From the NCBI GenBank assembly GCA_007127335.1, contig SKZO01000263.1, forward strand, positions 1-58,543: a stretch of 58,543 nucleotides of DNA, read 5' to 3'. Origin of the DNA: Spirochaetales bacterium. GTDB taxonomy: Bacteria > Spirochaetota > Spirochaetia > DSM-27196 > SLST01. Both the position numbers and the translations under genes were made by a program. Under the pieces are notes generated by a model that was given only the letters and a program-made list of their open reading frames with translations, did no database searches and was not told where the DNA came from. Positions 6,811 to 13,577 of this stretch are shown one piece after another. Each line of letters opens with the position of its first letter. Position 1 is the first letter of the stretch.

Positions 6811-9800
6811 ATGAGAGACATTCAGGACTTCGACAGTATCATGATCAAGCTGGCTTCGCCCGACCAGATCCGCGCGTGGAGCTACGGCGAGGTCAAGAAG
6901 CCTGAGACGATAAACTATCGGACGCTGCGCCCTGAGAAGGACGGGCTTTTCTGCGAGCGGATTTTCGGCACGACCAAGGAGTGGGAGTGCTACTGCGGAA
7001 AGTTCAAGAGCATTCGGTACAAGGGAGTGATCTGCGACCGGTGCGGCGTTGAGGTGACTCACTTCAAGGTGCGGCGCGAGCGGATGGGGCACATCGAGCT
7101 CGCCAGCCCCGTCTCCCATATATGGTACTATCGCTCGGTTCCCAGCCGGATGGGGCTCCTGCTCGATCTCACGATTGCGGCGCTGCGATCGATTCTCTAC
7201 TACGAGAAGTACATCGTGATCGATCAGGGAGATACCGAGCTCAAGCCGATGGAGCTTCTCACGGAAGAGGAGTTCATGGAAGCGAAGGAACGCTATGGAA
7301 TGAGCTTCTCCGCCGGCATCGGGGCAGAGGCGGTCAGGACGCTCCTTGAGAACCTCGATCTTGATGAGTTGTCCGTCGATCTTCGGCAACAGATGATCGA
7401 CAAAGGCGCAAAAGCCGACAAGCGGTTGCTCAAACGGATCGAGATCGTGGAGAATTTCCGCGATTCAGGGAATCGTCCGGAATGGATGATCGTCGACGTG
7501 ATTCCTGTGATTCCTCCGGAGCTCAGACCCATGGTCCAGCTCGACGGGGGGCGCTTCGCGACGAGCGATCTGAACGATCTGTACCGACGGGTCATCAACC
7601 GGAACAACCGCCTCAAGCGACTGATGGCGCTGAACGCTCCGGATATCATCATCCGGAACGAGAAACGGATGCTCCAGGAAGCCGTCGACGCGCTCTTCGA
7701 TAACAGCAAGAAGAAGCGTGTCGTGAAAGGAGCGAGTAATCGTCCGCTGAAGAGCCTGTCCGACATGCTGAAGGGCAAGCAGGGTCGGTTCAGGCAGAAT
7801 CTGCTCGGCAAGCGGGTGGACTACTCGGGCCGCTCGGTCATCGTGGTCGGTCCGGAGCTCAGGCTGCACCAGTGCGGGCTCCCGACCAAGATGGCGCTCG
7901 AGCTCTACAAGCCGTTCATCATGAAGAAGCTCGTCGAGAAGGACGTGGTCTACAACATCAAGAAGGCGAAGACGCTCGTCGAGCAGGAGACGCCCGAGGT
8001 ATGGGCGGTTCTCGACGAGGTCGTGCGGGAGCATCCGGTGCTTCTGAACAGGGCGCCGACGCTGCACCGACTGGGGATTCAGGCGTTTGAGCCGGTTCTC
8101 GTGGGCGGGAAAGCGATACGGCTGCACCCGCTGGTCTGCCACGCGTTCAACGCCGACTTCGACGGTGACCAGATGGCGGTGCACGTACCCCTGACGCAGG
8201 CGGCGCAGATCGAGTGCTGGACGCTCATGTTGAGCTCGCGCAATCTGCTGAATCCGGCGAACGGGTCTCCGATTGTCTTCCCGAGCCAGGACATGGTTCT
8301 CGGGATCAACTATCTCACACGGCACCGCTCCGGTGGGCGGGGTGAGGGCAAACACTTCAGCAGCCCGGACGAAGTGCTCCTGGCGCTCGATGCGCGAAGC
8401 ATTGAGTACGCGACGCTGGTGAAGGTGCCCATGGACGGGAAGGTGATCGAGACGACCGCCGGGCGGCTGATCTTCAACCTGGACATGCCGGAAGAGCTGG
8501 AGTACGTCAACGAATCCCTTGGCGACAAGGAGCTGCGGTCGCTTATCTCCCGTGCGTACGCGGAGGAGGGGCCGCACGTGACGGTGAAGATGCTCGACGC
8601 GATCAAGCGGCTCGGTTTCCGGTACGCCACGTTGTTCGGCGCGACGATTGGCATTGACGACATCAAGGTGCCCGCCAACAAGCCGAAGATGATTGAGGCC
8701 GCGAACACTGAGGTCAATGCGATTCAGAATCAGTACCTGCAGGGTCATATCACCAACGAGGAACGGTACAACCGGGTCGTTGAGGTCTGGAGCAAGACGA
8801 ATGAGGACCTCACCAACGTCATGATGAAGAATCTGCGGGAGGATAACTACGGGTTCAACCCGGTCTACATGATGGCCAACTCCGGAGCCCGTGGTAGCCG
8901 CAGCCAGATTCGTCAGCTCGCGGGGATGCGGGGTCTGATGGCGAAGCCGTCGGGCGACATCATCGAGCTGCCGATCCGGAGCAACTTCAAGGAAGGGCTC
9001 TCCGTCATCGAGTTTTTCATCTCGACGAACGGCGCTCGTAAGGGGCTCGCGGACACGGCGCTGAAGACCGCCGATGCCGGATATCTGACCAGACGACTCG
9101 TCGACATCGCGCAGGACGTCGTGATAACCGAAGACGATTGCGGCACGATCAACGGCATTGACACTGTCGCTCTGAAGGACGGAGAGGAGGTCGTTGAGTC
9201 GCTTGCCGACCGGATTTCCGGCCGGTACACGCTCGAACGTGTCAAGCATCCGATTACCGGCGAGATCATCGTCGATGTAAACGAAGAGATCTCTGACGAG
9301 AAGTCGACGGAGATCGAGCAGGCCGGTATAGAGTCGGTGCGTATCCGTACGGTTCTCACCTGCGAGGCGAGTCACGGAGTGTGCCGCCGGTGCTACGGGC
9401 GGAATCTGGCGACCAACCGACCGGTCGATATAGGTGAGGCGGTCGGGATCATCGCGGCCCAGAGTATTGGGCAGCCGGGTACGCAGCTGACGATGCGGAC
9501 CTTTCACATCGGTGGGGCCGCGACGAAAACGAGCGAGGAGAACCGCACCTACCTGCGATACCCGGTCCTGGTAAGAGATATTCAGGGTAGTCTTGTCGAG
9601 ATCTCGCCGGGGGTGAAGCTCTTCACTCGTAAGGGGTATGTGAGTGTTGCCCGCGTGCTCGATGAGGTGGTCATTGAAAAGAAGGACAGGTTGCAGGTCT
9701 CCGACGGGGACCGGGTCTCCACCGGAGATGTCGTCCTCAAGCGAGGCAAGCAGGAGATCACCGCAGATGCAAACGCCTACGCGGTTCTGCGGGAGGCCGA

Positions 9801-11043
9801 CGGGCTGCTGCTCTTCGTCGCGCAGGACCAGACGCTCGAGGTTCGCAACGGCGCCGAGGTTCTCGTCGGGGAGGGCGATCTTGTCGCTGCCGAAGAACCT
9901 ATTGCCGTATTCGACCCGTTCAGCGAGCCGATCATCTGCGAGTACAACGGGACCGTTGAGTTCAAGGACGTTGTGCAAGGGACAACGCTCAAAGAGGAGA
10001 TCAACGAAGACACCGGCAATGTAGAGAAGAAGATTACCGAGTTCACGCTCGAGAGCCTGCAGCCACGGATCGTCATCAACGACGATTCGGGCGAAGAGGT
10101 TGCCACCTACTACCTGCCCGGCTCAGCGTACCTGAACGTGGAGAACGGCGAGAAGGTGAAGGCCGGGCGTATCCTAGCGAAGCTTCTTCGGGAGAGCGTG
10201 AAGACGCGTGATATCACCGGTGGTCTGCCTCGCGTCGGTGAGCTCTTTGAGGCCCGACGTCCGAAAACCGGGTCGGTTCTCGCGCAGGTGAGTGGCACCG
10301 TCAACTTCCGCCCGATTGTGAAGGGGAAGCGCGTCATCATTGTCGAGGATGAGCACGGCAAGGAGTTCAAACACCTCGTGCCCATGGGAAAGCATCTTTT
10401 CGTGCGGCAGGGAGATGCCGTGAAGGCCGGTGAGATGCTCTGCGAGGGGACGATCGACCCTCACGATATCCTTCAGATTCTCGGCGAGAACGCGCTCCAG
10501 TCTTTCCTGGTGAACGAGGTCCAGGAAGTCTACCGGCTGCAGGGCGTCAATATCAATGACAAGCATATTGGCGTGATCATCCGTCAGATGATGCGCAAAG
10601 TCGAGATCGTAGGCGTGGGCGACACGAACTTCATCTTCGGGCAGCAGGTGGACAAGTACCGCTTCCATGAGGAGAACCGCAAGGTGATGCGGGAAGGCGG
10701 GCAGCCCGCGATCGCACGGCCGCTGCTGCTTGGCATCACGCGCGCCAGCCTGAACATCGACAGCTTCATCTCGGCCGCAAGCTTCCAGGAGACGACGCGC
10801 GTTCTCACGAACGCGGCGATCGCAGGCTCGACCGATCTGCTTCGAGGACTCAAGGAGAACGTGATCATTGGCCACCTGATTCCGGCGGGCACGGGTATAC
10901 GGGACTACCGGAACATCCGGCTCTTCGATGAGCACCGGGACGACCTCGACGCGCATATGCAGCAGATACTCGAGCAGCGAGCTCGCGAGCGGGAGCTCGA
11001 GGAACAGCAGGCCAAGGAAGAGGCGGAGATGCTCGAACAGTAG
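6811..11043 (+). CDS. rpoC: RNA polymerase beta' subunit
   Basis: Zn-binding CYCGK...CDRC, catalytic [17 protein letters not shown]. Confidence 0.99.
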
Positions 11044-11168: not shown

Positions 11169-11543
11169 ATGCCAACCATCAATCAGCTGATCCGAAACGG
11201 GCGGAAGACCATAAAGAAAGGGACAAAGTCGCCCGCATTGCAGGCTTGCCCGCAGAAGCGAGGAGTGTGCACGCGCGTCATGACGATCACTCCCAAGAAA
11301 CCGAACTCGGCCCTTCGAAAGGTGGCGCGCGTCAGGCTCACCAACGGGATCGAGGTAACGGCGTATATACCGGGAATCGGGCACAATCTTCAGGAGCACT
11401 CCGTAGTGCTGCTTCGGGGAGGCCGAATCAAGGACCTTCCGGGTGTCCGGTACCACATCGTGCGCGGCGCGAAGGATACCCTTGGCGTTGATGACAGACG
11501 TAAGGCGCGCTCGAAGTACGGGACCAAGCGACCGAAGGCGTAG
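11169..11543 (+). CDS. rpsL: 30S ribosomal protein S12
   Basis: [25 protein letters not shown]; true start at ATG 11169. Confidence 0.99.
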
Positions 11544-11551
11544 GTGGAAAG

Positions 11552-12022
11552 ATGCCAAGACGACACATTGTACCACGAAAGCAGGCTGTTCCGGATCCTC
11601 GTTTCGGTAGCGCGGTCGTTGCGAAGTTCGTCGCCCGGATGATGCTCGACGGCAAGAAGTCTGTCGCGCAGAAGGTATTCTATGGAGCGATGGACGATAT
11701 TGACCGTAAGGGAGACGCCACGTCGCTTGACGTCTTCTTGAAGGCGATCGATAACGTCAAGCCGGCGGTCGAAGTCAAGAGCCGCAGGGTTGGTGGCTCA
11801 ACGTACCAGGTGCCCGTTGAGGTTCGTGAGAGCAGGCGCGAGGCGCTGGCGATGCGGTGGCTCATCGCGGCCGCGCGAAGTCGGAGCGGACGCAGCATGA
11901 GTCAGAAGCTCAGTGGTGAGATCATGGACGCAGCGAACCAGTCCGGGAATGCGTTCAAGAAGAAGGAAGATACCCATAGAATGGCCGATGCAAACAAGGC
12001 CTTCTCCCATTATCGCTGGTAG
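11552..12022 (+). CDS. rpsG: 30S ribosomal protein S7
   Basis: [32 protein letters not shown]. Confidence 0.99.
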
Positions 12023-12262
12023 AGCGATAATGCCGGCAGAAACCCGTGAGGGTTTCTGCACGCCGAGCCGCACATCGGTTCGGTGCTGATCTTTCACAGC
12101 TCCGCTTGAGCCTACTCAAGCAGTGCAGACCAAACCGGTCGTCTCTTTCGCAGGAGAGCTGGTTGGCAGGATTGTTCGGCACGCAGTCCTGCTGAGCGAG
12201 AGTGCCGCGAGATGGCAAGGTGGTCGCGATTCTTCGAGTACGATTGTGGTACTCGTCTCGCG
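12008..12262 (+). ncRNA. Candidate structured RNA in the rpsG-tuf spacer (family unknown)
   Basis: At least 8 consecutive stem-loops and a multibranch closure (see findings). No recognisable protein homology. Confidence 0.4.
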
Positions 12263-12264
12263 TT

Positions 12265-12294
12265 TTGCCGGTTCTGCCGGCCCCACCTTACAAT
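12265..12294 (+). promoter_or_regulatory. Putative internal sigma-70 promoter for tuf
   Basis: TTGCCG (12265-70), 18-nt spacer, TACAAT (12289-94). Confidence 0.6.
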
Positions 12295-12383
12295 ACAGTG
12301 TTCGCAATCGATCCATTCGTGGATCGCGAAATACAGCGCTAGGAACGGACCACGGGTTCGTGGCAAGACCCAAGGAGGGCGGA

Positions 12384-13577
12384 ATGGCTAAGGAGAAGTT
12401 TGCGAGGACGAAGCCCCATATCAACGTCGGCACCATAGGCCACGTCGACCATGGTAAGACGACGCTGACTGCGGCGATCACGATGATCAGCTCGGCACGG
12501 CTCGGCTCGGGCAAGATCATGAGCTACGAGGAGATCGACAACGCTCCCGAGGAGAAGGCTCGCGGCATCACGATCAACACGCGGCACGTAGAGTATGAGT
12601 CGGAGAACCGCCACTACGCGCATGTGGACTGCCCGGGGCACGCGGACTACATCAAGAACATGATCACCGGCGCCGCGCAGATGGACGGAGCCGTCCTCGT
12701 CGTTTCCGCTCCGGACTCGGTCATGCCGCAGACGCGTGAGCACATCCTCCTTGCGCGACAGGTCGGCGTTCCTGCGATCATCGTTTTCTTGAACAAGACC
12801 GACCAGGTCGACGATCCCGAGCTCATTGAGCTTGTCGAGGAAGAGGTTCGCGAGGTGCTCAATGAGTACGAGTTCCCCGGTGACGAGATTCCCATCATCA
12901 AGGGAAGCGCCTTCGACGCGATGAGCAATCCGGGCGACGAGGAGAAGATCAAGCCGATCCTCGAGCTCATGGAAGCGATGGACACGTACTTCCCGCTCCC
13001 TGAGCGTGCGGTGGATCTCGACTTCCTCATGCCGATCGAGGATATCTTCTCGATCCAGGGCCGTGGAACCGTTGTCACCGGTCGTATCGAGCGCGGCATT
13101 GTCCATGTGAATGACAAGGTCCAGATTATCGGAATCCGTGATACGAAGGAGACCGTCGTTACCGGTGTCGAGATGTTCAACAAGTTGCTCGATGAAGGGC
13201 AGGCCGGAGACAACATCGGAGCGCTGCTCCGTGGTATCGACAAGAACGATGTCGAGCGCGGACAGGTTCTTGCGAAGCCCGGCTCAATCACGCCGCATAC
13301 GAAGTTCAAGGGAACCATCTATGCCTTGAGCAAGGAAGAAGGCGGTCGCCATAGTCCGTTCTTCACCGGGTATCGTCCGCAGTTCTATTTCCGCACCACC
13401 GATATCACGGGTACTGTTGCGCTTCCCGAAGGGAAGGAGATGGTGATGCCCGGCGACAATACCGAGATTATCTGTGAGTTGATCCATCCGATCGCCATGG
13501 ACCGTGGGCTGCGGTTTGCGATCCGGGAGGGTGGCCGAACGGTTGCCTCCGGTCAGGTTATTGAGATTCTTGAGTAA
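12384..13577 (+). CDS. tuf: Elongation factor Tu
   Basis: [44 protein letters not shown] 12384 follows AAGGAGG; the upstream extension in the ORF track is spurious. Confidence 0.99.

Follow-up and report, generated by a model that had tools for sequence, protein, structure and literature searches.

The DNA analysed here (the window) is the 58,543-nucleotide (nt) contig SKZO01000263.1 of the Spirochaetales bacterium assembly GCA_007127335.1, and our subject is the spacer between its rpsG and tuf genes. The gene order runs rpoC (6811-11043), rpsL (~11170-11543) and rpsG (11552-12022), followed by a spacer of 361 nt and then tuf (12384-13577, with an ATG start), rpsJ, rplC and rplD. The rpsG-tuf interval is the usual slot for fusA, which is missing from it here. 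The genome encodes three proteins resembling elongation factor G (EF-G), two in tandem at C354:24991-29220 and one at C167:9165-11300 (reverse-strand coordinates); all of these genes lie away from the str cluster, and none adjoins rpsG or tuf. The S7-protein relatives that carry names come from Spirochaetales and Spirochaetaceae genomes, the nearest being from soda-lake sediment. Few bacterial proteins are as abundant as EF-Tu, the product of tuf, and genes for about half of the ribosomal proteins lie in the S10-spc cluster. A sequence-only reading had proposed that a densely structured element at 12008-12262 fills the fusA slot, perhaps as an undescribed non-coding RNA (ncRNA) or cis-element. 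We see here that a class-wide structured RNA, real and uncatalogued, heads the tuf-S10-spc operon.

On the plus strand, 12008-12262 has a predicted folding energy of -121.4 kcal/mol, compared to -93.3 +/- 4.4 for 200 dinucleotide shuffles (z = -6.4). The minus strand gives z = -4.8, and the whole rpsG-tuf spacer z = -5.2. At the gathering score, Rfam 15 finds only two transfer RNAs (tRNAs) in the window and no family on the spacer. A search of region 11900-12450 at E <= 10 gives four chance-level matches far under the gathering score and no match to a T-box, while seven representative leaders of other genera show no match on the motif described below at E <= 1, and no Rfam riboswitch family matches either the window region or these seven leaders. 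This agrees with the sequence-only reading, which had recognised no hallmarks of tmRNA, RNase P, SRP, T-box or common riboswitches. The literature searched likewise holds no described spirochaete tuf leader, so the motif is new with respect to both Rfam and that literature.

This RNA has as its core a helix with bulges, written 5'-N-CCA-AA-CC-(variable stem-loop)-A-GG-UGG-N'-3'. In this arrangement N-CCA pairs with UGG-N' (P1), two A's are bulged, CC pairs with GG, and a variable helix (P2) follows; between GG and P2 the 3' strand has a single unpaired A and a small internal loop, and often there is a G.A or other mismatch. Thirteen nucleotides of the core are invariant, and two bulges are conserved. 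In the window it is formed by GACCAAACC/GGUGGUC and GUCGUCUC/GAGAUGGC, and this pairing is already present in the minimum free energy fold of 12008-12262. Its two strands are:

12128-12145, plus strand: core motif 5' strand, with GACCA (P1), the AA bulge (12133-34), CC, G and GUCGUCUC (P2)
12209-12225, plus strand: core motif 3' strand, with GAGAUGGC (P2), AA, GG and UGGUC (P1)

Minimal versions of the motif are single hairpins of 37-45 nt (e.g. GAGCCAAACCGCAGGCUUUUGCCUGCAGGUGGCGCC), and in the sampled spacers of the order CCAAACC is followed, 15-170 nt on, by AGGUGG. A first covariance model, built on the local hairpins AACCGG/CUGGUU and UCUC/GAGA, matched its own family only and was dropped; it was replaced because the minimal versions in other families revealed the long-range P1/P2 pairing. 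Among the short versions (n = 23), 87% of cells are paired and 40 are doubly changed, and a model-based alignment of 61 distinct sequences gives 87.7% paired cells with 102 doubly changed. In both cases, 0 of 500 shuffles were as good. Both-side changes are seen in 10 of the 14 pairs of the larger alignment, for which slid controls reach at most 58% paired. The pair next to CCA/UGG varies (G-U, A-U, G-C, U-A), one sequence carries the P1 compensation GCUA/UAGU, and a variant motif, CCAGACC...GGUGG, is present in named Treponema loci. The sequence-only reading had named beforehand points on which it could fail, and none of the three examined here (homologues, covariation and folding relative to shuffles) refutes it. 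The complete fold (P1, P2, arm and pseudoknot, mapped below) is 99.5% paired across seven genomes of the window's family. In G010, P2 is altered to GUCACCCCC/GGGGGUGGC. The core stem-loop has grown in the window's family into a branched insert with a probable pseudoknot, and the ancient part of the leader would be the bulged helix, with a minimum of ~40 nt.

An order-wide sample shows rpsG directly followed by tuf in every family, with spacers of 278-594 nt, excepting one family in which tuf lies elsewhere, and the motif is present in the rpsG-tuf spacers across all sampled families. The exact motif occurs in 45 of 60 named Spirochaetales, Sphaerochaeta, Marispirochaeta and Alkalispirochaeta loci, with five further variants. 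At loci where the spacer extends to 1-1.5 kb, the motif still lies 164-185 nt from the tuf start. A phylum-wide model search of low sensitivity gave 17 matches within the same class, all of them 170-280 nt 5' of tuf and many without rpsG inside 1.5 kb; the 11 matches from other classes were rejected as false, as all fall inside open reading frames (ORFs). A sensitive test was also performed on the 600 nt upstream of tuf in 13 same-class and 47 other-class spirochaete genomes. We see the motif at -157 to -252 from tuf in 11 of the 13, including a 1.1-Mb Treponema-like genome, and in 0 of the 47. Among the other-class genomes, at least the three that were inspected have fusA reaching tuf with a short spacer. 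The motif correlates with loss of fusA from the slot upstream of tuf, and the earlier assignment of the element to the fusA slot holds in that sense.

In Treponema-like genomes, the motif lies 5' of tuf with no rpsG near. Because its distance to tuf is kept both with long spacers and without an adjacent rpsG, the motif belongs to tuf rather than rpsG. An S7-responsive switch, one of the ideas put forward from the sequence alone, is thereby weakened, and S7 is an unlikely sensor given that the motif accompanies tuf even in genomes with rpsG at another place. Other candidate partners are EF-Tu, a metabolite or an RNase. The class-wide fixed distance and orientation to tuf also argue against the possibility that tuf is simply the downstream neighbour of a separate small RNA gene or of a processed stable RNA. 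Such a gene would fit the dense structure and the consensus promoter (TTGACW-17-TAnnnT) found 46-95 nt 5' of the motif in 20 of the 89 carriers (Sphaerochaeta and others), but there is no conserved terminator 3' of the motif, and in the window the conserved structure continues unbroken up to the Shine-Dalgarno (SD) sequence of tuf. We regard this explanation as quite improbable.

Eight same-family genomes, all with a long rpsG-tuf spacer (339-577 nt), were compared with the window to map the remaining features of the spacer RNA:

12008-12032, plus strand: hairpin CAUUAUCGCU/AGCGAUAAUG spanning the rpsG stop codon; lineage-variable
12036-12059, plus strand: hairpin GCAGAAACCC-GUGA-GGGUUUCUGC, of a GCAGAA...UUCUGC family; outside the conserved core
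12061-12085, plus strand: GC-rich hairpin with G-U pairs, immediately 5' of BoxA; sequence variable but hairpin constant in relatives
12088-12099, plus strand: BoxA-like sequence GAUCUUUCACAG; GUUCUUUUACAG in relatives
12105-12120, plus strand: hairpin CUUGAG-CCUA-CUCAAG; covaries between relatives
12133-12164, plus strand: alternative hairpin AACCGG...CUGGUU with UCUC/GAGA inside; family-specific, competes with P1/P2
12166-12192, plus strand: inserted arm GCAGGAUUG/CAGUCCUGC; four pairs with compensatory changes
12178-12182 with 12202-12206, plus strand: possible pseudoknot of the arm loop GGCAC with GUGCC
12225-12262, plus strand: hairpin CGCGA...UCGCG around CGAGUAC/GUACUCG, then UUUU; inner stem covaries
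12267-12281, plus strand: hairpin GCCGG-UUCUG-CCGGC; covaries, and overlaps the -35 element proposed by the sequence-only reading
12283-12289, plus strand: CCACCUU; family-invariant, complementary to AAGGUGG 12217-23 (perfectly) and to the tuf SD (imperfectly)
12301-12330, plus strand: hairpin UUCGC...GCGAA around GAUCCA-UUCG-UGGAUC; inner part of varying length
12350-12363, plus strand: hairpin CCACG-GGUU-CGUGG, just 5' of the SD; conserved
12372-12386, plus strand: tuf SD AAGGAGG (12372-78) and start codon ATG (12384-86)

Conservation within the family starts at UUCUUUUACAG (GAUCUUUCACAG at 12088-12099 in the window) and includes two near-invariant blocks, AGACCAAACCGGUCGUCUC (12127-12145) and GAGAUGGCAAGGUGGUCGCGA (12209-12229). 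These are followed by covarying hairpins, the invariant CCCACCUU (12282-12289) and the pre-SD hairpin. The conserved element therefore occupies roughly 12087-12383, reaching the tuf ribosome-binding site. Compared to the limits first proposed, both ends move: the initial three hairpins (12008-12085) are replaced by others in relatives, so that conservation begins at 12088 instead of 12008, and conserved structure runs on past 12262 to the SD at 12372. Most of the hairpins that had been listed are found in place (12008-12032, 12036-12059, 12061-12085, 12105-12120, 12166-12192 and CGAGUAC/GUACUCG at 12235-12255). GCUG/CAGC (~12085-12100) and GCGAGA(12196)/UCUCGC(12256) are lost in relatives, which keep UCGCGA(12224-29)/UCGCG(12258-62) instead. 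The long irregular stem at 12130-12166 survives as one of two competing folds, although order-wide support goes to the pairing of 12128-12145 with 12209-12225. A proposed tuf promoter (12265-12294; TTGCCG at 12265, 18 nt, TACAAT at 12289) is kept in the nearest relative only, and overlaps a covarying hairpin and the invariant CCACCUU. Overall, the suggestion of an undescribed ncRNA or cis-element is supported, but the conserved unit is the bulged helix together with the BoxA-like sequence, not the series of hairpins.

The alternative hairpin at 12133-12164 is 95.7% paired and invariant in the family; in G009, G010 and G020 the complementary partners are placed elsewhere. The pseudoknot is kept as GCGUG/CACGC in G009, a diverged member of the genus; a candidate arm C hairpin (UGCCG/UGGCA) was rejected, as it is absent from G009, where the pseudoknot pairing is retained. 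For the hairpin-plus-U-tract at 12225-12266, the U-tract is not conserved in relatives. The program-made ORF list prolongs tuf by 87 codons in the 5' direction (from GTG 12123, giving 12123-13577), stop-free and across the RNA motif. This extension is an artefact of high GC content, the true start being ATG 12384 behind AAGGAGG.

It is extremely improbable that the spacer is functionless, whether as a decayed fusA remnant or as a REP-like (repetitive extragenic palindromic) insertion. It does sit in the fusA slot, and its first hairpins are variable, with one belonging to a small GCAGAA...UUCUGC family. However, a fusA pseudogene was rejected when tblastn with the three EF-G paralogues gave only noise over the spacer (best E ~0.09, for a 361-nt target). 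A repeat or mobile element was also rejected, as the spacer is single-copy in its 3.86-Mb genome and only the hairpin at 12036-12059 belongs to the small family named above. Class-wide conservation of the core, with covariation, also speaks against this explanation. For the core, the remnant or REP-like reading is refuted, and it is left as a possibility for the hairpins at 12008-12059 only.

Within the window, AAGGUGG 12217-23 can pair with the motif 5' strand (P1) or, perfectly, with CCACCUU 12283-89, which is present in 10 of 10 family members. The motif 5' strand can also pair locally with CUGGUU 12159-64. The two folds are nearly equal in nearest-neighbour energy, with -84.3 kcal/mol for AAGGUGG:CCACCUU and -79.7 kcal/mol when P1/P2 is enforced. 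A fold switch is plausible on this modelling for the window's family only, without generality for the motif. A general role as SD mimic, anti-SD or SD switch was rejected, as the duplex energies between the motif 3' strand and sequence further 3' do not, overall, exceed those of shuffles (mean z = -0.5), and anti-AGGUGG words show no enrichment outside the family. A leader peptide after AAGGUGG was rejected as well, there being no conserved start codon. Separately, Sphaerochaeta-type leaders (L072, L084, L127, L128 and similar) contain a second conserved domain 3' of the motif, in which GGUUCCAG pairs with CUGGAAUCC ~70 nt on, with two hairpins inside and then UCCUC(C)UU. This terminal word is exactly complementary to the tuf SD AAGGAGGA in L127 and L128.

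Two mutually exclusive folds in the family, invariant core nucleotides and a 5'-leader position in many carriers are features that would also be expected of a small riboswitch aptamer, for a metabolite or ion that reports translational status. Against this, the minimal version is one hairpin of 37-45 nt without a junction or pocket-forming loop, the stem-loop accepts inserts of 15-170 nt, the lineages share no conserved expression platform, only one gene is preceded by the motif, and Rfam riboswitch matches are lacking. We therefore consider a riboswitch improbable.

In the window's family, a likely BoxA accompanies the core motif: (G)GUUCUUUUACAG is conserved 30-48 nt 5' of the motif (GAUCUUUCACAG in the window). 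It matches the ribosomal RNA (rRNA) leader BoxA of related genomes (AGAUCUUUUACAGG, GCUCUUUUACAUGG, GCUCUUUGACAUGG). Among motif-bearing leaders more widely, 21 of 89 have such a sequence upstream. Treponema-like tuf leaders present a TTGACA-17-TATAAA promoter, a hairpin, GGUUCUUUGAGAG or GGUAUUCUUUAGAAG, and then the motif. The window shows no convincing promoter 5' of BoxA, and the presence of BoxA there would imply transcription arriving from further upstream. The hairpin at 12061-12085 together with CUGAUCUUUC scores as terminator-like in the window, and a hairpin with UUCUUUU is present in all family members, the U-rich tract being the BoxA sequence itself. For this hairpin, a boxB-like element and a weak terminator stem of rpsG are both candidates. 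The operon's second gene, rpsJ, encodes S10 (NusE), and a BoxA upstream of rpsJ has been proposed to serve Nus-factor autoregulation by NusE in gamma-proteobacteria (PMC5725501).

Some further sequences related to BoxA or to the tuf promoters were noted. A perfect BoxA-like word, GUUCUUUUACAC, occurs at C162:11731, ~75 nt 5' of an ORF starting MKKGVLILTLIAVPLL (signal-peptide-like). It was rejected as an rRNA leader, since an ordinary ORF and no rRNA operon follows, and the occurrence may be due to chance. The spirochaete rRNA leaders L155-L164 have a purine-rich block resembling AAGGGAAGGGAAGGA 3' of BoxA in all those examined, which is not present in tuf leaders and is a possible boxC equivalent. 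In one Treponema-like genome, a cobalamin riboswitch (L148:1075-1255, minus strand, 110.9 bits) lies divergently just 5' of the tuf promoter.

The terminator-like hairpin 12061-12085 with its U-rich tail also fits a different role for the RNA, as an element that senses nothing and serves as boundary or processing site where the str (rpsL-rpsG) and tuf-S10 units meet. An element of this kind, for example an RNase site or stabilising hairpin, would label or shield the rpsG mRNA at its 3' end or a processed tuf mRNA at its 5' end. In keeping with this, 24 of the 89 carriers have the motif placed after the rpsG stop and ahead of a strong tuf promoter, a U-rich tract follows an extended P1 in L132, and a classic terminator follows the motif in G020. 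Against it, Treponema-like genomes have no upstream rpsG to terminate and hold the motif inside the tuf 5' leader, terminators 3' of the motif are not conserved, and the 13 invariant nucleotides and two conserved bulges exceed what a stability hairpin needs. We judge this role unlikely, though worth serious consideration.

The leader was compared with several known systems, of which the first is boxB-boxA-boxC antitermination in rRNA leaders (involving NusB/S10, NusA, NusG and SuhB), together with the BoxA of suhB and rpsJ (Baniulyte et al. 2017, PMC5725501). Like rRNA leaders, the tuf leader has a hairpin followed by a 12-nt BoxA that matches the spirochaete rRNA BoxA at all but one or two positions. 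A further point in common is that this BoxA stands at the start of an extended structured leader that is not translated, ahead of an operon whose second gene encodes S10 (NusE). Unlike in rRNA leaders, it precedes tuf and is present in only some lineages (the window's family and Treponema-like genomes), and the class-wide bulged helix has no counterpart there. The Escherichia coli S10 leader, subject to L4 autoregulation and NusA-dependent attenuation, and other ribosomal protein leaders resemble the tuf leader in having a small conserved bulged helix of the kind that ribosomal proteins recognise. A narrow phylogenetic range, typical of ribosomal protein leaders (PMC3616713), is also shared. 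However, there is no sequence or structure homology to the E. coli S10 leader (HD/HE helices; Rfam negative), tuf is here the first gene, no attenuator terminator is conserved, and the motif lies 5' of a proximal promoter in a quarter of carriers. P1, as N-CCA:UGG-N' with N and N' covarying, recalls the UGGN:NCCA pairing between the T-box antiterminator and the tRNA acceptor end. Unlike a T-box, the motif has no Stem I, specifier loop or T-box sequence, precedes another class of gene and pairs in cis, and we treat this as a resemblance only.

A further likeness is to an AAACC-containing segment of 23S rRNA, which we take to be helix 59a (H59a; E. coli ~1604-1625), in a region that holds m6A1618. 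This segment is universally conserved in the Rfam large-subunit (LSU) consensus as CC-gu-AAACC-GACACA-GGU-gGgc. Written as CC-AAACC-GACACA-GGU-GG, it has in common with the leader motif AAACC...AGGU(G)G, the pairing of CC with GG, and A's left unpaired in the 5' strand. Published work places the H59a tip (A1614-A1616) beside the hairpin of uL22 and the loop of uL23 (PMC6685948, PMC13186991), and the uL22 and uL23 genes are both downstream in the tuf operon. The differences are that a variable stem-loop replaces the 6-nt rRNA loop that touches uL22, that the leader flanks pair with each other whereas the 23S flanks pair with distant strands, and that the spirochaete's own 23S rRNA reads CGCAAACC...AGGUAGG. 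A comparable linear match is found in 16S h40/h38, and a rough estimate of the chance of an H59a-type match is ~0.1. The motif model gives no significant hairpin match in two spirochaete rRNA operons. It is a rather doubtful lead that the bulged helix mimics the base of H59a and binds uL22, uL23 or uL4, encoded a few genes downstream. If this were true, the class Spirochaetia would couple EF-Tu and ~30 ribosomal protein genes to free ribosomal protein levels, layered in some families on S10/NusB-BoxA control. It would constitute a new autoregulatory pair of ribosomal protein and RNA, the first known to gate tuf, with cultivable Treponema and Sphaerochaeta included.

Taking these data together, we hold with moderate confidence that the rpsG-tuf spacer encodes a leader RNA acting in cis on the tuf-rpsJ-rplC-rplD... 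(EF-Tu/S10/spc) operon. It probably helps to set the amount of translation machinery made, with the bulged helix probably serving as a protein-binding site that is joined in the window's family by putative Nus-factor BoxA antitermination. Transcription would enter 5' of BoxA, either from a promoter near the end of rpsG or by rpsL-rpsG read-through. Nus factors, including NusB/S10, would load at BoxA, and RNA polymerase would be carried through the long, structured, untranslated leader. A translation-apparatus protein, with the product of a downstream ribosomal protein gene as the likeliest candidate, would bind the bulged helix, whose occupancy would set operon output. In the window's family, binding may favour P1/P2 over the AAGGUGG:CCACCUU fold.

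Several observations weigh against a leader acting in this way. Complements of the CCACCUU type show no enrichment outside the family (4 of 65 observed, 2.4 expected), and within the family the AAGGUGG:CCACCUU pairing is uninformative because it is invariant. Modelled SD exposure changes modestly between the two folds (0.75 vs 0.53 unpaired). The BoxA comparison uses the rRNA leaders of relatives, as the genome itself and its genus have no assembled rRNA operon, and no intrinsic terminator is conserved after the motif in relatives. The strongest case against tuf being governed by a simple translational operator comes from the carriers with a downstream promoter: in 24 of 89 (Alkalispirochaeta and others), a consensus promoter lies 34-146 nt 3' of the motif, so that the main tuf transcript would lack the motif, which would instead be on the rpsG read-through RNA. 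With about a quarter of carriers built in this way, control of tuf by itself cannot fully account for the motif, and a boundary or processing role stays alive. The window itself falls in neither clear promoter group.

Outside gamma-proteobacteria and Firmicutes, control of the synthesis of the EF-Tu/S10-spc products is largely unknown (PMC3616713), and a compact covarying motif is seen here to mark the operon head in a whole spirochaete class, Treponema-like genomes included. Natural comparisons are on offer between carriers with a promoter 5' or 3' of the motif, and between those with and without BoxA. Binding of a ribosomal protein would make the motif part of a recognition pair of RNA and protein not seen before; failing that, it would represent a novel type of boundary element for operons.

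Finally, the rpsG-proximal hairpins (12008-12059) show a behaviour of their own. The last rpsG codons (..UAUCGCUGGUAG) pair with the first bases after the stop, and the GCAGAA...UUCUGC hairpin comes next. Hairpin 12008-12032 is duplicated in some relatives along with the hairpin that follows it; in the G007 spacer (L002) this two-hairpin module is a tandem duplicate (CUACAGGUGG/CCACCUGUAAUG), and in the G002 spacer (L004) the words of the rpsG 3' end recur ~35 nt downstream. This suggests that the rpsG-end hairpins are a duplicating or mobile terminal module. A GCAGAA/UUCUGC outer stem with differing inner stems forms four well-formed hairpins (C7:44, C7:137, C283:186 and window 12036), three of them within 200 nt of contig starts, and GCAGAA-N6-24-TTCTGC pairs number 16 in the genome compared to ~2.6 expected.

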